Below, piece after piece: positions 1 to 63,133 of a DNA stretch of 64,000 nt. Under the pieces are notes generated by a model. That model made no database searches. It worked only from the letters and a program-made list of their open reading frames with translations, and was not told the DNA's origin. Numbering within the stretch: the stretch's first letter is position 1; every line of letters begins with the position of its first letter. Origin of the DNA: Verrucomicrobiota bacterium (GTDB lineage Bacteria; Verrucomicrobiota; Verrucomicrobiia; Chthoniobacterales; UBA6821); the NCBI GenBank assembly GCA_021413925.1, contig JAIOPL010000013.1:77888-141887 (forward strand), read 5' to 3'. Position numbers and translations under genes: made by a program.

Positions 1-2391
1 CTCGGCCTCTAGGAGAAGGCTGCCTTCGGATACCGGCTGTTTCCATGTTCCGGAGAGATGGACTTTCCCTTCTATACGGGCTTTCTTAAGGGGCCATGCT
101 TCCAGCCTCATGAGGCTCGCCCACCCATCCAGGGGGACGTGTTGGAAGGATGCGGATCCACGGATTGGCTGATCGACATCCCCTATTCTAAGGGTTCCCT
201 GATCATTGACCAAAGAAAGCGGCATCTCCAACTCCACGGCTAACGGTGAAGAGGATGCCGTTTCCTGAAGAAGCTTTAACTTGGCTTTCCCTTCCCCGGC
301 TTCCAAGGAGAGGGAAAGATCCGCGGTCGGCCCGCCATGCATGGGTGAAAAATTGCGGATGCTCATCGCGGCATGCACGTCCGGTTTTGCAGGTGTACCC
401 GTTACGGTGATCGTTCCCTCAAGGCCTCCTAAAAAAAGAATTTCCTGGCCAAAAAGGCCTGCAATTTCCTCGGCCTTGATTCCCTGGAAGGCGAGGTTGA
501 TCCCGAGCGACCCGTCCATCACGATGGTCTTGAGCGCGTCGCCGCTTTGCCAGAATTCCGTTGCATTGAACGGGAGCGACAGTTCGCCTTTCACAAGAGG
601 TAACGGCTTGCCAGCGCGGGTCGCCACAATGTCCGTGGCCCGGAAGGCGTTGGTTGTCGCTGAAAGTTTCATGGCAAGTGACAGGTCCTCCTGCTTGAAA
701 TTGGCCTTGGCGAGTTCCACTTTTCCCGGTGCGTAAGTTCCCTCGAAGGTTCCGGACATGCCGGTGGTTGTCCACTTGCTCACCCATCCGTTAACCTGAG
801 TCTGAAACGATCCGGTGTGAACTTCTGCGGCGCCCTCTCCCTGCCAGTGAAACTTCACTCCGCCACCCCCGTTGACGGTGGCTGTGGTAAGTCCTAACTG
901 GGAAAGTCGCTTTGTCAGGTCGTGTACATCGGCTTCCGCCTCGGCTACGTAAGCATGGGGGCGGCTGTTAGCGACATTACCGCTTAGATACAGGTGATCT
1001 CGTCCGCTCCATGCCTCTAGGGAGGTCAGCCGGGTCTGATCACCGGCGAAGATCACGCATCCTTTCAGCCAGTCCAATGGCAATTTACGGATGGTCATGC
1101 CGGTACCGGTGACATTGCAGTATCCTTCAGCCTTGTTCTCGGCGCCTTGAACCTCTCCCTCCAGAGCCATTCCTCCACCCAGCTGGGCAAACTGGGGGCC
1201 AAATAGTCCAGCCAGCGCACCGGCATCCTCAAGCTCGGCATGAAAGCTCGCAGTAAAAGGAGCGCGGAGCGCCGCATGCCAATCTGCCGGGAGATGGCTT
1301 TGTCCCGACGCCGTCAATTCATTCTCCCGTTGCTGGAGATGAAGTTCGGAAATGGTGAGGTTGCGCCCCGTAAGCGTCGTGGCTAATCGGAGCGACTCCC
1401 AACCCTTTCCTTCCCAATGGAAATCGCGGGCGATGAGGCGTAATGAGCTGTCGGCATCCACCGGGTTTGCGGGATCGCCACGGAACGTAAAACGCGCCTG
1501 GCTGATGACCCCGGTCGCCTTTTTTTCATCCTTCATCCATTCATGGAAGGCCTCCAGCGCCAGACCTTCGCCCACCAGCGTCAGCTCGAGATGGTTGGAA
1601 TTCATCGCCGTCCCCAAGCTGCCGTCACCCCTCAGAATACCCTGGCCGGCTGTTCCCCTGATGCCGAAATCGACACCACCGGCCACCGGTCGGAGAGACG
1701 ATTCCTTAAGGAGGAAATCATGGCCCAGATCCAGCTCACCCAGACGAAGTACTCCACCCTCCCAAGCAGCGGGGGCAGAAGCTCTGGGCAGAACGCGGTG
1801 CCAAGCGCCGACATCCAAAGACCCATCGGCATAAGAAATCCTGCCGGCCCATCGGTCAGGCAAGCGAAGCGTCAGGCCATTCACTGCCAGTCGGTGATGA
1901 TCTCCGATCATGACCAGGTCAGCGGACCCCAGAGTGCAGGAAGAGGAAGGGAGGAAGAGCGTGGTGCGCAAAAAAGGCTGTATACCCCAGCGCGGTTGCT
2001 TCTTAAGCGGCTTTGCGGTGCGTGTGCTCGCTCGGGTATCCAGTAGCACCTTGGTCTTGCCCGCCATCATCTCCCGGATCAACGGCTGTGGCTTCCCGTC
2101 GGAGAAGTGAAGAAGTTGCTTCATCGAAACAAGGCGCACCCCAATCCAGTCGGTCTTGATGCTGCTTCGGTGATCGAGCGGGCCAAATAGCCATGTCACG
2201 CCCCGGGCTTGGATCCATCCGTTCTCTGCGAGCGCGAGCTGCTCGATATGCAACTCCCCGCCATATTCCCAGGCAGCAAGCCCAAGGCCACCCCGTAGCA
2301 CACCGCAGAATACCGGCTTGAAGAAAAGCCAGGTCGCAACCGCTAATGCCAGCAAGGCCAGCGTTCTCCATGCCGTGGGTGTTCCGGACAT
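1..2391 (-). CDS. TamB/AsmA-like translocation-and-assembly protein, N-terminal 797 codons (C-terminus lies left of the window)
   Basis: Not in the supplied track because there is no stop inside the window. Manual translation of the - strand from ATG 2391-2389 gives 797 sense codons without a stop down to position 1 (MSGTPTAWRTLALLALAVATWLFFKPV...GTITVTGTPAKPDVHAAMSIRNF...). It has one N-terminal hydrophobic anchor, then a long G/T/L-rich beta-type sequence. The short ORFs listed for 58-2549 are out-of-frame shadows. The family call is by resemblance only. Confidence 0.5.
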   Translation of the reverse strand, partial: MSGTPTAWRTLALLALAVATWLFFKPVFCGVLRGGLGLAAWEYGGELHIEQLALAENGWIQARGVTWLFGPLDHRSSIKTDWIGVRLVSMKQLLHFSDGKPQPLIREMMAGKTKVLLDTRASTRTAKPLKKQPRWGIQPFLRTTLFLPSSSCTLGSADLVMIGDHHRLAVNGLTLRLPDRWAGRISYADGSLDVGAWHRVLPRASAPAAWEGGVLRLGELDLGHDFLLKESSLRPVAGGVDFGIRGTAGQGILRGDGSLGTAMNSNHLELTLVGEGLALEAFHEWMKDEKKATGVISQARFTFRGDPANPVDADSSLRLIARDFHWEGKGWESLRLATTLTGRNLTISELHLQQRENELTASGQSHLPADWHAALRAPFTASFHAELEDAGALAGLFGPQFAQLGGGMALEGEVQGAENKAEGYCNVTGTGMTIRKLPLDWLKGCVIFAGDQTRLTSLEAWSGRDHLYLSGNVANSRPHAYVAEAEADVHDLTKRLSQLGLTTATVNGGGGVKFHWQGEGAAEVHTGSFQTQVNGWVSKWTTTGMSGTFEGTYAPGKVELAKANFKQEDLSLAMKLSATTNAFRATDIVATRAGKPLPLVKGELSLPFNATEFWQSGDALKTIVMDGSLGINLAFQGIKAEEIAGLFGQEILFLGGLEGTITVTGTPAKPDVHAAMSIRNFSPMHGGPTADLSLSLEAGEGKAKLKLLQETASSSPLAVELEMPLSLVNDQGTLRIGDVDQPIRGSASFQHVPLDGWASLMRLEAWPLKKARIEGKVHLSGTWKQPVSEGSLLLEAE

Positions 2392-2523
2392 GGCGGGAGG
2401 ATGCTCCGGAACCTCGGTGTTTTTGTAACGGGGCGGCATGAGGAATCGATGCGTTGGAAAAGGAAGTATGACTGCTCCCGGCTCGCTTGACCCGCGAAAA
2501 TGATGCGGCCTGGCGTTCTCGCT

Positions 2524-13327: not shown

Positions 13328-13978
13328 ATGGGCTCCATCATCGCACCGTCGATCCTGGCAAGTAACTTCGCCTGCCTTGGCGACGAGGTTGCCAGCGTGA
13401 CGGCCGCTGGAGCCGATTGGATTCACTGCGATGTCATGGACGGGGATTTCGTACCGAACATCTCCTTTGGCGAACCGATCGTGAAAGCCGCCGGGCGTCA
13501 CACGGTTCTTCCGCTCGATGTTCACCTCATGATCCAGCGGCCCGACCGCTACATTGGACAATTCATGGATATTCCAGGCGTTGCCTCCGTCACCTCACAC
13601 CTCGAGGCCAATCACGATGCCGGAGTAACGCTCGATACCGTGAGAGCCGCCGGGAAAAAAGCCGGTCTCTCGATCAAGCCCGGAACACCGCTCGATCAGG
13701 TCCGCGAGCTCTTTGGCCGTTTCGACATCCTGCTCATCATGACGGTCGAGCCGGGCTTCGGCGGACAGCCCTTCATGAACGACATGCTGGGCAAAATTCA
13801 GGAAGCCGATCGACTTCGTAAGGATCTGGGACTCGGATTCCTGATCGAAGTGGATGGAGGAATCGATGCCAAGACCGCCGCCCTCTGCCGTGAGGCCGGT
13901 GCCGATGTCATGGTAGCAGGCACCTCGGTCTTCAAGGCCGCCGACCGCGCTGCTGAGATCCGCGCCCTGCGGGGATAG
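13328..13978 (+). CDS. rpe: Ribulose-phosphate 3-epimerase
   Basis: 216 aa. HCDVMDGDFVPNISFG and MTVEPGFGGQPF motifs. Confidence 0.93.
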   Translation: MGSIIAPSILASNFACLGDEVASVTAAGADWIHCDVMDGDFVPNISFGEPIVKAAGRHTVLPLDVHLMIQRPDRYIGQFMDIPGVASVTSHLEANHDAGVTLDTVRAAGKKAGLSIKPGTPLDQVRELFGRFDILLIMTVEPGFGGQPFMNDMLGKIQEADRLRKDLGLGFLIEVDGGIDAKTAALCREAGADVMVAGTSVFKAADRAAEIRALRG

Positions 13979-14020
13979 GTAATAGGGAATCGGTGATTGG
14001 TAATGGGGGGATAGTGGGAG
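13974..14020. repeat. Low-complexity word block (GATAGG / GGTAAT / CGGTGAT)
   Basis: The sequence is GATAGGTAATAGGGAATCGGTGATTGGTAATGGGGGGATAGTGGGAG. The same words recur at 14614-14640, 14708-14734 (reverse complement) and 39789-39806 (reverse complement GGGGATTGGAGATAGGGC). Confidence 0.6.
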
Positions 14021-14051
14021 GGGCGCTGGATGGAGCGTGAGATTTCCTCAA

Positions 14052-14077
14052 GTTTCAGGTTTCAGGTTTCAGGTTTC
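14052..14077 (+). repeat. Heptanucleotide tandem array (GTTTCAG) x3.7 in the tadA leader
   Basis: The array gtttcag gtttcag gtttcag gtttc is read directly from the sequence. It ends 21 nt before the tadA ATG (14099). Confidence 0.9.
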
Positions 14078-14098
14078 TTTGGGCTAGGCTCATGACGC

Positions 14099-14611
14099 AT
14101 GGAAATATCCTTTCAAGATGAGCCTTCCGAGGATCCGATCATTGATCTGACCAGCGATGACTATTTCATGGGTCAGGCGCTGCGGCAGGCGCTCAAGGCT
14201 TATGAGTCCGAGGAGGTGCCGATCGGTGCCGTGGTCGTTCGCGAGGGGAAGATCATCGCGCGCGCCTCAAATCTGGTGGAGACCCTCAAGGACGCCACCG
14301 CTCATGCCGAGATGCTGGCCATTACCCAAGCGGAGAACTCGATCGGCGATTGGCGCCTGAACGAATGCGACCTCTACGTGACCAAGGAGCCTTGTCCGAT
14401 GTGTGCCGGGGCTCTGGTGAACTCACGGGTCAGGAGGGTCATCTTTGGATGCCATGATCCCAAGGGAGGAGCGGCAGGTGGCAGCATCAATATCCTTCAG
14501 ATGGATGGACTCAGTCACAGGTGTGAAATCACCGGCGGTGTGCTCGGAGAGCAGAGCGGACAACTGCTAAAGTCCTTTTTCGCCGAGCGACGAGGTAGTG
14601 CTGGGATATAG
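14099..14611 (+). CDS. tadA: tRNA-specific adenosine deaminase
   Basis: 170 aa. Cytidine-deaminase-fold zinc motifs HAEMLAI and PCPMCAGAL. Size is typical of TadA. Confidence 0.92.
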   Translation: MEISFQDEPSEDPIIDLTSDDYFMGQALRQALKAYESEEVPIGAVVVREGKIIARASNLVETLKDATAHAEMLAITQAENSIGDWRLNECDLYVTKEPCPMCAGALVNSRVRRVIFGCHDPKGGAAGGSINILQMDGLSHRCEITGGVLGEQSGQLLKSFFAERRGSAGI

Positions 14612-14613
14612 GC

Positions 14614-14734
14614 GATAGGGGATTGGTCATGGGGGTTCGGCAAAACGGGGCCGGGTGTTACCTACGTCCTGACCCGTGCCCTTTGCCGGGAACCCGAAAC
14701 CCGAAACCCGAAACCCTATCACCGATTACCTATC
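14614..14734. repeat. Inverted-repeat element with internal (AACCCGA) x3.7 array
   Basis: The left arm GATAGGGGATTGGTCATGGGGGTTCGG (14614-14640) matches the reverse complement of the right arm, GATAGGTAATCGGTGATAGGGTTTCGG (14708-14734), at 21/27 positions. The heptad array lies at 14691-14716. Confidence 0.7.
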
Positions 14735-14800
14735 CTCCTTGGCTTGCTACAAGGAACTCCTTCGGGTTTAGTGACCTTTCCCTAAACCGGGCCTCTTTTC

Positions 14801-17912: not shown

Positions 17913-20519
17913 TCAGGGACAAACTCGACGAAGCAGAGCTAGAAGCTCGAGCTTTTCCTCTTTAGAAACGTAACCATCTTCTGTGATGCGCTCTAGCGTA
18001 TCGGCAATTTCTGTTCCTGGCCAATTTCGTATTGGGCCGGCTTTAGCAAACCAATCGCCAAGATAACTGACTTCTGATGTGGTAATTTTTCCGTCAGCGA
18101 TAAGACCCTGACACAGCCCCATTAGTTCAGAAAGCTTAGCACGCTCAGTTTCTTCGAGTGGTCCAGGGAGATGGTTTAGTTGAGTTTCGGAACATCTAAT
18201 AAATTCTGCATCTTCATTCGAAGCGGTCCAGTCCTGCATACCCTCCCTCCATACCCAACAAGTCAGAGGCGCTGTTTTTTCTAGAATTATTGAGGCAGGA
18301 AAGGGACCTAAGGCTTGGTTTTCATTAGGATCGATAAAATACCAGTGATCCGTAAACTCAGGCTTAGATGCTACGATTTCATTTTTTGCAGAGGAAAGAG
18401 CACTCAAGCACTTTGCAATCGGAGTTTTTTTGGAGAATTCAGTTAGAGATTCAAAAGAGTCTAATCCAATAGATGCGATTCTGGGATAAATGACCGAGGT
18501 AAATAGTGTTGTTAAAGTATCCACATCACCAAAAGCACGATGAGCATGGCTGGCGTTAATATCAAACCGATCGGCCAGATATGAAAGGCTGTAGCTATCT
18601 GCATCACCGATGACGCGGCGACACAGCATAAGAGAACAGAATCCTCTCCTCCCTGCCGGCGGAAGACCCAGGCGTAGCCATTCGGAAAACAATGCACGAT
18701 TCCAATCAAAACTTAAATTGTGAGAAACAATGGGGCGGTCGCCTACAAATGTAGAAAACTGTTGATGAGCCGCTATTGGATCAACGCCGTTCTTTGCGAG
18801 AAACGCTTTTGTGTATCCATGAATAGCCGTAGCTGCCTCGGGAATATCTACATTATGATTTAAAAGCACCCGAAATTTATCTCCATCGGGTAGCCATCCC
18901 CTCATTTTTTGGGCGGCAATTTCAACAACATGCACTGGTTCAGCGAAGCCGTCTGTTTCAGTATCAATTAACACCCACTCTGTATCGTTCATTTTATTTG
19001 ATAGTTTGATGTTTTGGTTAGTATCGAGATCTATTGTTTGAGAACCATCTTTTTTCAGCCATTGGTTGAGATCCTGATTGAAATCAACTTGTTCTGCTCC
19101 CCGAGTCATTGCCACATACAGAAGATTCATTTCCTGAAAACAATCATCGTTTTCTTCACCGCGAGGTAATAATTCCTTCATGCTGAGCAACTCATCAAGA
19201 AGTGTAAAATCATCGGTCATCTTAACACGCCTCCATTCACCGCCCTTAGCCCTGTGAGCAGTGGCAAAGGAAATAGAGGCTTTACTAGGACTTGTAGAAT
19301 TAGACCTGATTGAATCAATAATGGACGGCAGCGAGTCACCATAGGTGTTTACTAGAGCGACATGCTTGGCCAGCTCATCGTCCGCACCAGATCCGTCTTG
19401 CCCTTGTGCGTGGTCAAGCACTTCTGCCCATGATTTGAATGCCATGATGTATGGCGTTCGTATCCTTGATCTATCCCCTTGCTTTAGAAAAAGTAAATCT
19501 AGTGGGGTCTGAAATTCGTATGTGTAGTAAGGATCCCAACTCTCTCGCTCAGATGTTCCGGCAAAATGAAGTAGCTCGCCTGCTTCGGAATATGGTATCG
19601 CAGCTCCAATCAAAAAAGCATTTGTGCGACTGATTGTAGCAGAGCCAGATAATCTACTCTTTGAAGGTCCAACTCCCACTAATTGAACAGGATCGTTTTT
19701 GAACTGATTTAAAAAACGGGTTGCTACCGATGCAATGTTCGCACCAAAACGGAAACAACTTGTTAAAGAAACAGAAGAAGTAGCGTAGCCTTCTAGTTTT
19801 TCGATAACATTTATTGCATGCCTGAATTGATAAATACTCTGATGTTTATCACCCACCATTACCAAGGGAGTTCTTAGACTGGTATTTTGTCTTAAAACGA
19901 TATCTAGGGTTACAGGATTAATATCTTGGGCCTCATCAAGGAGAATTACGTCGTAGCCGTGCAGAAGGGGGGTACTTAATGACCATAATTTAAGATAGCC
20001 GTCATGGGTCATCGGGCAGCTTGAGGAAACATCCTGCATCAATTTCCATAAGCGGCGCGCTTCATATAATAGCGTGCTAGGATTAATGAGGCATTCTAAC
20101 ACGCTAGGCAGGTGCTTTTCGCCAATCTCGGCATCAACACTATAGAAGAATCTCTCAACTACTTGAATGATGAAAACAGCAACATGCGGTGTCTTTAAGC
20201 CCAAGAGTTTCATCACCACGAGTGGCCTTAGGTTGCCTATTTTCTGCTTATACCTATAACCAGTGGCTCTAAACGCAAAGCTGTGGATTGTTCGGCATTC
20301 CGTATTTTTAGGAAATCTACGACGAGCTTTTATAGCGGTTTCTTTATTAAAACAAAGGTAGACAAACGTTTTTTTAGGAGATGCGGCAGCGAGTAGTTCT
20401 AAAGAAGCTGTTTTCCCTGTTCCGGCGTAGGCATTTATAATTAACAACGTTTCCGGAGAAAGATCCGACGAAATAACTGCCTCCTGCTCATCTGTAGGTT
20501 TAAGTGAGTAGCGAGCCAT
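17913..20519 (-). CDS. Multidomain SF1 (UvrD-like) helicase + DEDDh 3'-5' exonuclease + GYF_2 domain + TerB-like C-terminal domain
   Basis: 868 aa with an ATG start. Helicase motifs: I AYAGTGKT (K36), II ILLDEAQD (D195/E196), III VGDKHQSIYQFR, IV SCFRFG, V/VI TAHRAKGGEW and LLYVAMTRG. Exonuclease motifs: ExoI LIDTETDG (D519/E521), ExoII SHNLSFDWN (D605), ExoIII HRAFGD (H660/D665). GYF_2-like region HWYFIDPNENQALGPFPASIIL...WVWREGMQDWTASNEDAEF (aa 724-774). TerB-like tail LCQGLIADGKITTSEVSYLGDWF...EDGYVSKEEKLELLALLRRV. The gene is much more AT-rich than its flanks (33 and 40 G+C in 19001-19100 and 18301-18400). Confidence 0.85.
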   Translation of the reverse strand: MARYSLKPTDEQEAVISSDLSPETLLIINAYAGTGKTASLELLAAASPKKTFVYLCFNKETAIKARRRFPKNTECRTIHSFAFRATGYRYKQKIGNLRPLVVMKLLGLKTPHVAVFIIQVVERFFYSVDAEIGEKHLPSVLECLINPSTLLYEARRLWKLMQDVSSSCPMTHDGYLKLWSLSTPLLHGYDVILLDEAQDINPVTLDIVLRQNTSLRTPLVMVGDKHQSIYQFRHAINVIEKLEGYATSSVSLTSCFRFGANIASVATRFLNQFKNDPVQLVGVGPSKSRLSGSATISRTNAFLIGAAIPYSEAGELLHFAGTSERESWDPYYTYEFQTPLDLLFLKQGDRSRIRTPYIMAFKSWAEVLDHAQGQDGSGADDELAKHVALVNTYGDSLPSIIDSIRSNSTSPSKASISFATAHRAKGGEWRRVKMTDDFTLLDELLSMKELLPRGEENDDCFQEMNLLYVAMTRGAEQVDFNQDLNQWLKKDGSQTIDLDTNQNIKLSNKMNDTEWVLIDTETDGFAEPVHVVEIAAQKMRGWLPDGDKFRVLLNHNVDIPEAATAIHGYTKAFLAKNGVDPIAAHQQFSTFVGDRPIVSHNLSFDWNRALFSEWLRLGLPPAGRRGFCSLMLCRRVIGDADSYSLSYLADRFDINASHAHRAFGDVDTLTTLFTSVIYPRIASIGLDSFESLTEFSKKTPIAKCLSALSSAKNEIVASKPEFTDHWYFIDPNENQALGPFPASIILEKTAPLTCWVWREGMQDWTASNEDAEFIRCSETQLNHLPGPLEETERAKLSELMGLCQGLIADGKITTSEVSYLGDWFAKAGPIRNWPGTEIADTLERITEDGYVSKEEKLELLALLRRVCP

Positions 20520-29500: not shown

Positions 29501-29529
29501 AGGGATGAAGGGGATGAAAAAGATGGAGG
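29501..29529 (-). repeat. Heptad-type array (sense strand CCTTCAT-like) abutting the nfo start
   Basis: The + strand reads agGGATGAAGgGGATGAAaaaGATGgAGG, with more ATGAAATGAAG at 29540-29550. This is the same ATGAAGG word as in the purU leader. Confidence 0.6.
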
Positions 29530-39731: not shown

Positions 39732-39827
39732 GCGAAAGCCGGGGATGGATCATCGGGAATAGCTGGATCGGGAAACCCTATAACCTATGCCCTATCTCCA
39801 ATCCCCTACAGGTGCTAACCTGTAACT

Positions 39828-46907: not shown

Positions 46908-46918
46908 CCGGTGATGTT

Positions 46919-46951
46919 AAAACCTGAAACCTGAAACCTGAAACCTGAAAA
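46919..46951 (-). repeat. Heptanucleotide tandem array, sense strand (CAGGTTT)x4, in the trxB leader
   Basis: The + strand reads AAACCTG x4 exactly (46920-47947 is wrong; correct range is 46920-46947), flanked by A runs. The array is 12 nt from the trxB start codon (46907). Confidence 0.9.
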
Positions 46952-46976
46952 TGGGAAATCTCTGTCAGAGACTTTC

Positions 46977-47393
46977 CTAAACTTCCGGAGCGAAGGGTTC
47001 CGGCCAGCCTTTGGGTAGGCGGAGAGGTTTCCCCTCCGGCATCTTCACGAAGGCTAGCGCTTGCTGGCACGTGATCAGCAGGGCCCCGTCGCGCGGGCGC
47101 TTGATCTCGAAGTGGCACCAGAAGCGGGCAGGGGTGGCCTCACCGAGGCGTCCGTGAACTTCGAGTTCGTCTCCTAGGATTGCGGGCCTCTTGTAGTCGA
47201 TCTCGGTGCGCACAACCACGGGGTAGACCGAGGTTCGGGCCATCCGCTCCCAATCCATGCCCAGCTTTACGGCGAGCAGTGTGCGAGCCGTCTCGATGAA
47301 GCGAAGGTAGGCAATGTTGTGGACGACTCCACCCGCATCCGTGTCGAAGAACATGACCTGAACGGGTGTGACGATGGAGGGGGGAGAAGACAT
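46977..47393 (-). CDS. Acyl-CoA thioesterase, 4HBT/YbgC family
   Basis: 138 aa. Hot-dog fold N-terminus VMFFDTDAGGVVHNIAYLRF. Confidence 0.8.
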   Translation of the reverse strand: MSSPPSIVTPVQVMFFDTDAGGVVHNIAYLRFIETARTLLAVKLGMDWERMARTSVYPVVVRTEIDYKRPAILGDELEVHGRLGEATPARFWCHFEIKRPRDGALLITCQQALAFVKMPEGKPLRLPKGWPEPFAPEV

Positions 47394-47401
47394 GGAAGGA
47401 T

Positions 47402-47425
47402 GAAACTGGAGACCTGAAACCTGAA
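47402..47425 (-). repeat. Degenerate heptad array (sense TTCAGGTTTCAGGTCTCCAGTTTC) in the thioesterase leader
   Basis: The + strand reads GAAACTG GAGACCTG AAACCTG AAG. The array is 8 nt from the start codon (47393). Confidence 0.75.
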
Positions 47426-47442
47426 GGCGTGTTAGCGGTTCC

Positions 47443-49003: not shown

Positions 49004-49015
49004 GGAGAGGAAAAT

Positions 49016-49043
49016 ATGAAGGATGAAGGATGAATTATGAAGG
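49016..49043 (-). repeat. Heptad array, sense (CCTTCAT)-type x4, in the purU leader
   Basis: The + strand reads ATGAAGG ATGAAGG ATGAATT ATGAAGG. The array is 12 nt from the purU start codon. Confidence 0.85.
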
Positions 49044-49054
49044 GTTTTCGGAAG

Positions 49055-49085
49055 CCCTCGACTCTCGACCTTCGTCGCTCGACGG
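49055..49085 (+). repeat. 7-8-nt array (CCTCGAC TCTCGAC CTTCGTCG CTCGACGG) in the leader of the GYF/Yip1 gene
   Basis: Read directly from the sequence. The array ends 14 nt before the ATG at 49100. Confidence 0.75.
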
Positions 49086-49099
49086 ATTAGCCTTTTGTC

Positions 49100-59284: not shown

Positions 59285-59294
59285 GTGAAAAGGG

Positions 59295-59321
59295 TGAAGG
59301 CTAAAGGCTAAAGGCTGAAGG
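59295..59321 (-). repeat. Heptad array, sense (GCCTTCA/GCCTTTA)x4, in the mscL leader
   Basis: The + strand reads TGAAGGC TAAAGGC TAAAGGC TGAAGG. The array is 10 nt from the start codon (59284). Confidence 0.85.
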
Positions 59322-59746: not shown

Positions 59747-59770
59747 GACCTGAAGCTTGAAACCTGAAAG
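59747..59770 (-). repeat. Degenerate heptad array (sense TTTCAGGTTTCAAGCTTCAGGTC) in the VOC-gene leader
   Basis: The + strand reads GACCTGA AGCTTGA AACCTGA AAG. The array is 14 nt from the start codon (59732). Confidence 0.75.
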
Positions 59771-62309: not shown

Positions 62310-62683
62310 GGGCATCTTTTCTGTGTTCTTGATAAGATAGCTCAGGTTATTCACAGAGGTTCTCCTCTGGGTTTCATGAGCTGATTGCCCGTAGAGCCTG
62401 ATTTGATGCCATGTTACGGAATCGCCATGGAAAAACCGCTGATCAGGCCGTGATCAGAGAATGTTCCACGGCATGAAGAGAGATTCGAAGAGGTAAAAGC
62501 CGCTTGATGATCTGATCGAAGCGATCTGTTCCACGGATTTCCGAGGACCAGATGAAGCCACTACACACAACTTATTCACAAGACATCCCCAAAGGCGGAT
62601 ATCAAAGGAGAAGACCCATGGTGGAGACCAATGGTCAAGACTTCTGGCTTGGCGGATGCCGCCCGCTCGGAAAGCATCGTGCC

Positions 62684-63133
62684 ATGGGCAAAAAACAATC
62701 CAAACCGCAGTCGGACACCCGGAACCTGACCCTCCTGGGAGGCGGCCCCCTCCAGCAGCTTTCTTCACCGGAAGAGGCCGTTCTGGAAACCTTTGAAAGC
62801 CCTTCCAAGCGGGATTACGAGGTGACGTTCTCCACGCAGGAATTCACCTCCCATTGTCCCGTCACGGGCCAGCCGGATTTTGCCGAGATCATCATCCGCT
62901 ACACTCCTGATCGGCGCTGTATCGAGAGCAAATCGCTCAAGCAGTACCTCGGCGCCTACCGCAACCAGGCGGTCTTTGCTGAAGGAATCACTAACAGGAT
63001 CTTGGATGACATCGTCCAGGCGATCTCGCCACGTCGGGCCAAGGTGATCGGGGATTTCTTTCCGCGGGGCGGCATCGGCATCCGTGTCGAGGCGACCTAC
63101 GAAGGCTCGAAAGCGAAGACAGGGCGCCGGTGA
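62684..63133 (+). CDS. queF: NADPH-dependent 7-cyano-7-deazaguanine (preQ0) reductase
   Basis: Trimmed to ATG 62684 (MGKKQSKPQ). Active-site region EFTSHCPVTGQPDFAEIIIRY. ~149 aa unimodular type. Confidence 0.9.
   Translation: MGKKQSKPQSDTRNLTLLGGGPLQQLSSPEEAVLETFESPSKRDYEVTFSTQEFTSHCPVTGQPDFAEIIIRYTPDRRCIESKSLKQYLGAYRNQAVFAEGITNRILDDIVQAISPRRAKVIGDFFPRGGIGIRVEATYEGSKAKTGRR

Follow-up and report, generated by a model that had tools for sequence, protein, structure and literature searches.

Bacteria that make little use of Shine–Dalgarno (SD) sequences must still mark the starts of their genes, and how this is achieved is understood only in part. In a 64,000-nucleotide stretch of DNA from a Verrucomicrobiota bacterium (Chthoniobacterales, UBA6821; GenBank assembly GCA_021413925.1, contig JAIOPL010000013.1, forward-strand positions 77,888 to 141,887), referred to below as the window, several unrelated genes, including trxB and a thioesterase gene, carry short tandem arrays of a 7-nt unit close upstream of their start codons. 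The question raised by this locus is whether such arrays act as a signal for gene expression or are repeats that the DNA beside a start codon can tolerate. The host is poor in SD sequences, and as microsatellites with a heptanucleotide unit the arrays belong to a class already described, that of the long simple sequence repeats (SSRs) and the similar short tandemly repeated repetitive (STRR) sequences. The explanation favoured here, to which a probability of about one half is given, is that the arrays are SSRs generated by slippage that persist in tolerated start-proximal DNA, where they would be modulatory at most, rather than a conserved dedicated signal.

Heptanucleotide arrays and their placement in the window

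The arrays were located with Tandem Repeats Finder (TRF) and period scans, and their coordinates and distances were taken directly from the sequence (Table 1). The window has a G+C content of approximately 58 %, and the TRF copy numbers of its arrays range from 3 to 4.7. A preliminary description, made from the sequence alone, had reported 7-nt arrays at no fewer than eight genes and had named eight. TRF, the scans and the sequence support seven of those named, while the nfo leader, upstream of a gene whose product contains an AP_endonuc_2 domain (Pfam), has a related motif repeated with a 9-nt period and is not a 7-nt array. Two of the distances also required correction, as the thioesterase array ends 6 nt and not 8 nt from its start codon and the GYF/Yip1 array 16 nt and not 14 nt, so that the seven arrays end 6–21 nt from the start. 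The gene names tadA, trxB, 4HBT thioesterase, VOC/glyoxalase, purU, GYF_2+Yip1 and mscL are supported by Pfam.

The arrays differ in regularity and in surroundings. The purU array consists of four CCTTCAT units with one variant, two of the four thioesterase units are degenerate, and the GYF/Yip1 array is a further, degenerate period-7 array. The thioesterase array is placed in a 49-nt spacer, 3' of the stop codon of an ABC ATPase gene. The VOC array also lies 18 nt from the ATG of the divergent pta gene (59788), with respect to which it has the opposite, purine-rich orientation. The array downstream of tadA, located between the tadA stop codon and the secA start codon and 84 nt 5' of secA, belongs to the same unit family as the start-proximal arrays, and its orientation is opposite to the rule.

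Table 1. Period-7 arrays, the related nfo repeat and −10-like boxes of the window
Feature	Position	Strand	Sequence	Relation to gene	Basis
tadA array	14048–14077	+	(GTTTCAG)x3.7	21 nt 5' of ATG 14099	TRF, sequence
tadA −10-like box	14085–14090	+	TAGGCT	8 nt before ATG	
tadA-downstream array	14686–14716		+ strand (AACCCGA)x3.7 = (GGGTTTC) on − strand		TRF, sequence
nfo leader	29503–29518	−	two TTCATCC copies, 9-nt spacing	2 nt 5' of probable GTG 29500	
trxB −10-like box	46914–46919	−	TAACAT	between array and ATG, 6-nt gap	
trxB array	46920–46950	−	(CAGGTTT)x4 exact + partial unit	12 nt 5' of ATG 46907	TRF (period 7, 4.4 copies, 100 % matches)
Thioesterase array	47400–47427	−	CCTTCAG GTTTCAG GTCTCCA GTTTCAT	6 nt 5' of ATG 47393	sequence, loose period-7 scan
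purU −10-like box	49011–49016	−	TATTTT	7 nt before ATG	
purU array	49016–49043	−	CCTTCAT AATTCAT CCTTCAT CCTTCAT	12 nt 5' of ATG 49003	TRF
GYF_2/Yip1 gene array	49056–49083	+	CCTCGAC TCTCGAC CTTCGTC GCTCGAC	16 nt 5' of ATG 49100	
GYF/Yip1 −10-like box	49088–49093	+	TAGCCT	6 nt before ATG	
mscL array	59294–59321	−	CCTTCAG CCTTTAG CCTTTAG CCTTCAC	9 nt 5' of ATG 59284	TRF, sequence
VOC/glyoxalase array	59749–59769	−	TTTCAGG TTTCAAG CTTCAGG	16 nt 5' of ATG 59732	TRF, sequence

At a strict cut (at least three units, at most two mismatches), the window contains five period-7 arrays, against 0.13 in dinucleotide shuffles. At a looser cut, all eight period-7 arrays are intergenic, the intergenic share of the window being 11 %, and six of the eight end no more than 21 nt upstream of a start codon and are pyrimidine-rich on the sense strand. 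Random intergenic placement on a random strand gave a mean of 0.44 such arrays, with none of 20,000 permutations reaching six, and position alone, with strand ignored, gave a permutation P of 1e-4. The arrays are thus real and their placement is non-random, in agreement with the start-proximal, sense-strand pyrimidine-rich arrangement that had been proposed from inspection. The exceptions to the rule are the VOC array as seen from the divergent pta gene, the 14686 array near secA and the G-rich arrays of the GGKRATN type that follow stop codons. The general composition of leaders was considered as a source of the strand bias and rejected, since leaders without arrays are not pyrimidine-rich (pyrimidine fraction Y = 0.52, compared with 0.66 for array leaders).

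Turnover of the arrays among relatives

Orthologous leaders were obtained from a search of metagenomes with TrxB, which gave 80 loci ranging from 99 % to 70 % identity, and TadA homologues supplied further loci (loci are designated by L numbers). The closest named TadA homologues are from ‘Verrucomicrobiota bacterium’ (87 %) and ‘Chthoniobacterales bacterium’ (72–77 %). The trxB array is present in most TrxB relatives of 89–99 % identity and has 2–4 units: four in the window, four with two substitutions in L122–L124 and two in L125. No trxB array is present in L130 (90 % TrxB identity) or in L142/L143 (85 %), where the thioesterase–trxB gene order is retained, nor in any relative of 70–75 % TrxB identity. 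Among the relatives, the thioesterase array is limited to the three closest, L122–L124; in the others, the stop codon of the upstream ABC gene abuts the thioesterase start. The tadA array recurs with one substitution in the 99 % relative L202 and is absent at 96 %, 93 % and 87 % TadA identity. No intergenic heptamer arrays were found in the 15–20 kb of syntenic DNA of the 87–96 % relatives.

Where arrays persist, their length and even their unit may differ. For the array downstream of tadA, the window shows 3.7 units and the 99 % relatives L202/L203 approximately 1.7; together with the four versus two trxB units of the window and L125, this constitutes whole-unit copy-number polymorphism among close relatives. 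At purU, the leader keeps its two proximal units and the TATTTTCC that follows them down to 82 % PurU identity, and the distal units decay. The GYF/Yip1 leader contains (TCTCGAC)n in the window and in L123 and (CTTTCAG)x3–4 in L124, L127 and L130, where the array ends 13 nt before the ATG. These comparisons show that the arrays arise and change copy number by whole 7-nt units and decay through point substitution. The loss, exchange and copy-number change of arrays among relatives argue against a conserved signal. The preliminary description had named absence from the orthologous leaders of close relatives as an outcome that would speak for neutral microsatellites, and by that comparison the idea of a conserved signal is largely contradicted, as in relatives the arrays may be missing, shorter or replaced by others while the genes are kept.

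Metagenome contigs of close relatives were also observed to start 1 nt before the ATG of trxB (L001) or of tadA (L203), which suggests that assemblies tend to break next to arrays.

Period 7 and the significance of the unit

The preference for period 7 extends beyond the window. In 866 kb surrounding matches to (GTTTCAG)3, there are 63 heptamer arrays of other units, compared with 2–4 for periods 5, 6 and 8, and 264 kb of distant trxB loci, an unbiased sample, contains 16 heptamer arrays with diverse units, versus two for period 8. Heptanucleotide units are the most over-represented long SSRs in many bacteria (Mrazek 2007, as cited in PMC4679880 and PMC4692102), and the origin proposed for long SSRs, as reported in the same two papers, is polymerase slippage, for which approximately 7 nt may be a particularly prone length. 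The features by which this class is recognized were all found here, namely an excess over shuffles, an intergenic period-7 bias and whole-unit polymorphism. Like the long SSRs of Mrazek, as these are summarized in the citing papers, the arrays favour period 7, are intergenic, are phylogenetically scattered and vary in length between strains. In contrast to the arrays of the window, the long SSRs are presented in those summaries as a statistical class, for which no positional rule and no start-proximal, strand-biased subset is described.

The unit itself appears less informative than its length. The exact 21-mer (GTTTCAG)3 occurs in at least 120 stretches of species-representative genomes from at least nine phyla (Bacteroidota, Acidobacteriota, the Planctomycetes–Verrucomicrobia–Chlamydiae (PVC) phyla, Desulfobacterota, Chloroflexota, Cyanobacteria and others), against approximately 0.3 expected. 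Among the start-proximal cases in other phyla, CTGAAAC forms the sense strand in 25 and GTTTCAG in six. Viral contigs contain 32 (GTTTCAG)3 stretches, and permuted units of the same composition occur in 27, 78 and 4 stretches and TAACTGA in 107. A (GTTTCAG)n element conserved across phyla was rejected because permuted units are similarly common in viral contigs and the orientation relative to genes varies by phylum. Judged by the viral contigs, the GTTTCAG unit is not special, and its counts are read as a reflection of the general abundance of heptamer SSRs. A dispersed single-copy YTTCAGS motif was likewise rejected (65 matches versus 46 expected), as the arrays themselves account for the excess, and the motif GATAGGK was not enriched. 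A search of the literature for (CTGAAAC)n or (GTTTCAG)n as such returned nothing relevant.

Inverted pairs of (GTTTCAG)n and (CTGAAAC)n, 10–25 nt apart and predicted to form hairpins of 20–30 bp, are frequent in Acidobacteriota and Bacteroidota, as seen at L010, L017, L033, L050, L103 and many other genome loci. The typical order is a stop codon, the GTTTCAG arm, a loop, the CTGAAAC arm and an ATG within 1–25 nt. Some of the arrays exceed 18 units and end contigs.

Start-adjacent −10-like boxes

At trxB, a hexamer of the form TAnnnT separates the array from the ATG (Table 1). In an alignment of nine array-bearing trxB leaders, the T, the A and the final T are invariant and 6 nt separate the hexamer from the ATG in every case, while its three central positions (TAACAT, TAATAT, TAGCAT or TATCCT) and the flanks are variable. 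Among 41 distant trxB orthologues, 33 TAnnnT matches are found at a gap of 8–14 nt and almost none elsewhere, and these orthologues often have TTGCCA-N17-TAnnnT. Similar boxes precede tadA, purU and the GYF/Yip1 gene, and the TATTTT of purU is retained in L123, L127 and L130 and is TGTTTT in L125. Overall, four of the seven array genes have TAnnnT at a gap of 6–8 nt, and four of the 28 other genes have it at a gap of 4–10 nt. In the whole window, TTGnnn-N16–18-TAnnnT was found near a start only once.

The motif TANNNT approximately 12 nt before the start codon is a signature of leaderless genes (Zheng et al. 2011, PMC3160421), and at trxB, GYF, purU and tadA the first T of TAnnnT lies 12–14 nt before the start, as in leaderless-gene promoters. 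The published signature is silent on tandem repeats, whereas here a repeat fills the adjoining spacer/−35 zone. As judged from the sequence, the arrays of trxB, tadA, purU and GYF are therefore probably located in the spacer/−35 zone of a start-adjacent promoter and are probably untranscribed; at trxB in particular, the box between array and ATG indicates that the array is probably upstream of the transcription start and not part of leader RNA. The divergent spacers between VOC and pta (55 nt) and between purU and GYF (96 nt) consist almost entirely of arrays, and promoters in these spacers must therefore overlap them. The thioesterase and mscL arrays, by contrast, lie in short co-directional spacers without a −10-like box and are probably transcribed. 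Among the functions that had been suggested for the arrays, that of a promoter-proximal element consequently fits the trxB box better than that of a translational enhancer. The −35 boxes of extracytoplasmic function (ECF) sigma factors or sigma-32 were considered and rejected, as TGAAAC/CTTGAAA is on the purine-rich strand, which is wrong for the window genes, and no matching −10 box is present at the right distance.

Initiation context and predicted RNA structure

SD-like 4-mers at positions −20 to −4 are present in none of the seven array leaders and in six of the 28 other leaders (6/35 overall), which agrees with the earlier observation that the array leaders lack an SD-like motif. In a per-class table of SD usage, Spartobacteria stand at 10 (PMC10783764). 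The predicted minimum free energy (MFE) of the region from −50 to +20 averages −6.4 kcal/mol for array leaders compared with −12.0 kcal/mol for other leaders. For (GUUUCAG)6 and (CCUUCAU)6 the predicted MFE is 0, and for GCCUUUA, UCUCGAC and ACCCGAA, of which the two strands differ in structure, the strand in sense orientation is predicted to be the less structured. The Rfam models yielded only two tRNAs at gathering score in the window and no riboswitch, leader or small RNA family at the arrays. Pairing with 16S rRNA (CAGGUUU with GAACCUG of helix 45) was rejected by argument, the window containing no rRNA: within the ribosome this segment is itself paired, the other units are unmatched and other phyla use the opposite strand.

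Relation to known heptanucleotide systems

The closest described system is that of the TAACTGA repeats, of which 169 sets occur in a single genome of the Beggiatoaceae (MacGregor 2015, PMC4679880). Most of these sets are in one orientation, directly upstream of start codons and without a ribosome-binding site (RBS), and binding of ribosomal protein S1, a cold-shock protein or CsrA has been proposed for them, their function being unproven; for Bacillus subtilis CspB, binding of a single protein to each heptamer was reported (PMC4679880). The two systems share tandem heptamers (2–6 units in Beggiatoaceae), a nearly exclusive intergenic location, a predominant ‘forward’ orientation before starts, the replacement of a recognizable RBS, unrelated host genes that include essential ones, a strong preference for one unit per genome, and RNA that is predicted to be unstructured. 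They differ in host phylum (Gammaproteobacteria, compared with Verrucomicrobiota here) and in unit, since the units of the window are GTTTCAG, CCTTCAT, CCTTTAG and TCTCGAC and the main unit family is S-Y-T-T-Y-A-K, mostly GTTTCAG. TAACTGA also gives stop codons in every frame, which GTTTCAG does not, and most often ends 1 nt before the start, whereas the present arrays end 6–21 nt away, four of them behind a −10-like box. The TAACTGA survey covered a whole genome, compared with 64 kb here.

A second group comprises the heptamers GGGAATC/GGGGAYT of Xanthomonas and Nostoc (Rehm et al. 2015, PMC4692102) and the STRR heptamers of cyanobacteria (Mazel 1990, as cited in PMC4692102). The Xanthomonas/Nostoc heptamers are genome-specific intergenic units, often in inverted pairs able to form hairpins, that stay between the same genes in related species and vary in length and sequence (PMC4692102). 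They are G-rich, quadruplex-prone and without a link to start codons, while the start-proximal arrays of the window are single and T/C-rich on the sense strand. As in Xanthomonas and Nostoc, however, G-rich arrays including GGGAATC are present in the window as well, after stop codons and as a hairpin. These GGKRATN-type arrays (13973–14009, 14608–14635, 14715–14735 as an inverted copy, and 39745–39808) begin directly at the rpe and tadA stop codons, fold as a hairpin in the convergent feoB/topA spacer and resemble a second, stop-proximal heptamer family. The view that the start-proximal arrays are not a described element is contradicted both by the class of heptanucleotide SSRs and by the TAACTGA arrays of Beggiatoaceae, for which the same S1, cold-shock-protein and CsrA hypotheses were put forward.

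The hmw1A and hmw2A genes of Haemophilus influenzae carry repeats of the unit ATCTTTC. Phase variation by heptanucleotide SSRs is documented in H. influenzae, as outlined in PMC12721329 and PMC8262952. The hmw arrays resemble those of the window in having a 7-nt pyrimidine-rich unit between promoter and start codon, where copy number affects expression; they differ in being long and hypermutable and in serving phase-variable surface adhesins, whereas the arrays here have 3–4 units and precede housekeeping genes.

Weighing the explanations

In the explanation favoured here, slippage, for which 7 nt would be a favoured unit length, generates lineage-specific arrays that would survive only in the short stretch directly upstream of start codons, and this stretch would be the part of a compact module at the gene start in which sequence is relaxed. 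At trxB, tadA, purU and GYF/Yip1, the array would occupy positions of approximately −13 to −45, i.e. the spacer/−35 zone of a near-leaderless promoter, and at thioesterase and mscL it would fill a short intercistronic spacer. The bias in orientation and unit (S-Y-T-T-Y-A-K, T/C-rich on the sense strand) may best be read as a selective filter that keeps units with a higher A+T content than the genome, with neither ATG nor SD-like sequences and unable to self-pair, which would be tolerated beside a start codon and may mildly help; gain or loss of a unit would then tune expression and not switch it. Several findings weigh against this explanation. Six of the nine arrays in the 64 kb share the S-Y-T-T-Y-A-K family, whereas independent slippage should give unrelated units, and the same family recurs at the GYF leader of relatives. 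Position and orientation depart strongly from chance, and orientation is not simply the local norm (Y = 0.52 versus 0.66). The trxB array persists in relatives down to 89 % TrxB identity. The assignment of −10 boxes at trxB, tadA, purU and GYF is itself putative, the thioesterase, mscL and VOC genes are without a well-placed TAnnnT, and scans with the sigma-70 consensus found no full promoter around the arrays. Because the sharing of a unit family and its recurrence at the GYF leader of relatives are poorly explained by slippage, an RNA landing pad and a promoter element are kept as live rivals.

A dedicated signal at the RNA level, in which transcribed arrays would serve as an SD-independent landing pad for the ribosome, through S1 on U/C-rich strands or one cold-shock domain per heptamer, is considered unlikely, although many observations accord with it: the start-proximal placement with its sense-strand bias, the lack of SD-like motifs in all seven array leaders, the predicted lack of structure in the repeats, with the less structured strand always the sense strand, and the preference for a single unit family in the lineage. 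It would also suit the thioesterase and mscL arrays, which lie in co-directional spacers without a −10-like box and are probably transcribed, the GYF leaders of relatives that have (CTTTCAG)n and no TAnnnT before the ATG, and the (CTGAAAC)n arrays of other phyla, which end 1–25 nt before the ATG, too close for a −10 box; the reported binding of one B. subtilis CspB per heptamer (PMC4679880) and the equivalent function proposed by MacGregor for TAACTGA repeats provide precedents. Yet at trxB, tadA, purU and GYF the −10-like box is at a leaderless position, which would leave the array outside the mRNA barring read-through, close relatives lose or swap arrays while the genes stay, and use of the opposite strand elsewhere (CTGAAAC sense in 25 cases versus 6) means that no single RNA sequence is recognized across taxa. 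A wider version, held to be rather unlikely, is that start-proximal heptamer arrays are a general gene-start signal of SD-poor bacteria (TAACTGA, CTGAAAC in Bacteroidota and Acidobacteriota, and S-Y-T-T-Y-A-K here), read by a lineage-specific protein with an oligonucleotide/oligosaccharide-binding (OB) fold or by RNA polymerase; an S1 or cold-shock protein would place one domain per 7 nt, and the repeat would replace the SD sequence or the −35 box independently of copy number. It is viable because of the strong preference in position, strand and unit, the recurrence of the family at the GYF leader of relatives and the presence of start-abutting arrays in several phyla. A dedicated DNA-level promoter element, acting as a register-independent surrogate of a −35 box or upstream promoter (UP) element or as a tandem operator with the same contact every 7 bp, appears quite improbable. 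In its favour, the arrays of four genes are exactly at the spacer/−35 position upstream of TAnnnT, the array of array-bearing trxB promoters replaces the TTGCCA −35 of distant orthologues, the purU/GYF divergent spacer contains two arrays that each face their own gene, and one unit family is preferred; as read from the sequence, the −10-like boxes of trxB and tadA have TTCAGG 17–18 bp upstream, and that of GYF has TCGACC, a 4/6 match to TTGACA, 17 bp upstream. The −35 matches are nevertheless poor (3/6 for TTCAGG), the purU and mscL arrays have none at the right spacing, and the reverse strand, CTGAAA, matches TTGACA better; moreover, the 7-bp period is not in register with the turns of the DNA helix, consensus promoter scans were empty, the arrays are dispensable in relatives, and thioesterase, mscL and VOC are without a suitably placed −10 box.

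The remaining explanations are given very little weight. Contingency loci, in which slippage would drive phase variation or a rheostat as in the 7-bp repeats of H. influenzae hmw, are highly improbable here, as the preliminary description had already supposed: the arrays have only 3–4 units, far short of the lengths that give high switching rates, and are hosted by housekeeping genes (tadA, trxB, purU, mscL) and not by surface or restriction genes, and, since an array is self-similar, an extra unit leaves the −35/−10 spacing unchanged. This holds even though SSRs are situated in promoter or leader regions, their copy number varies among 97–99 % relatives (trxB four versus two units, tadA-downstream array 3.7 versus 1.7), assemblies break at or near the arrays, and phase variation by heptanucleotide SSRs is known from H. 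influenzae (as outlined in PMC12721329 and PMC8262952). An origin as the remnants or ends of a small mobile element that resembles a miniature inverted-repeat transposable element (MITE) and targets gene starts is similarly given hardly any likelihood. The occurrence of one unit family at several sites, the inverted composite of two array types that brackets tadA and the clear dispersal in the clade of a different element, ended by octamer arrays, would accord with such an origin, but the GTTTCAG-family sites lack common flanks, terminal inverted repeats and target-site duplications, variation occurs in place, by whole units and point changes, and arrays of many unrelated units behave alike in related genomes.

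Significance

Heptamer tandem repeats placed in one orientation against start codons are now seen in both Beggiatoaceae and Verrucomicrobiota. If the arrays were functional, they would provide a testable handle on SD-independent initiation or on the promoter architecture of leaderless genes. If they are tolerated microsatellites, they mark the unconstrained DNA in very compact gene-start modules, break metagenome assemblies and offer a fast-evolving marker for strain typing. In either case, annotators should not call them a conserved regulatory motif.

Other repeats and features of the window

The tadA gene is flanked by an inverted composite (13970–14740), with a G-rich array and (GTTTCAG)4 upstream and (CCGAAAC)4 and the reverse complement of the G-rich array downstream; its arms, 19–21 nt long and 81–89 % complementary, are approximately 715 nt apart. 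In 93–96 % relatives, the octamer-ended architecture described next is found 3' of tadA, where the window has its heptamer array. Inverted pairs of octamer arrays, (C)GCAGAGG x3 and CCTCTGCG x3, are present in the window at 26393–26416/26502–26524 and 28481–28500/28589–28613 and also in relatives (L204, 4926–5080; L206, 10538–10690). They enclose a core of 85–110 nt that is not conserved from site to site, and may represent a dispersed hairpin-ended element. Period-8 arrays number three against 0.03 expected and are without an Rfam match.

The sole heptamer-like repeat outside intergenic DNA, (TTCATCC)2 at 1525–1544, is located inside an 841-aa open reading frame (window 1–2523, − strand) that extends past the window start and is without a Pfam match. 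The leader of queF (62552–63133, + strand) occupies a 242-nt spacer (62310–62551) that has no match to the preQ1 riboswitch or any other Rfam family, even at E ≤ 5; its region from −50 to +20 is predicted to fold much more stably than shuffled sequences (z = −2.9). A gene of 868 aa and low G+C content (approximately 43 %) at 17913–20519 (− strand) unites UvrD-like helicase and RNase_T exonuclease regions with a weak match to GYF_2 and occupies the slot 3' of secA. In relatives, this slot is taken by McrBC, DNA methylase, SLFN-like helicase or Fic/HTH genes, and it resembles a variable defence-island slot.

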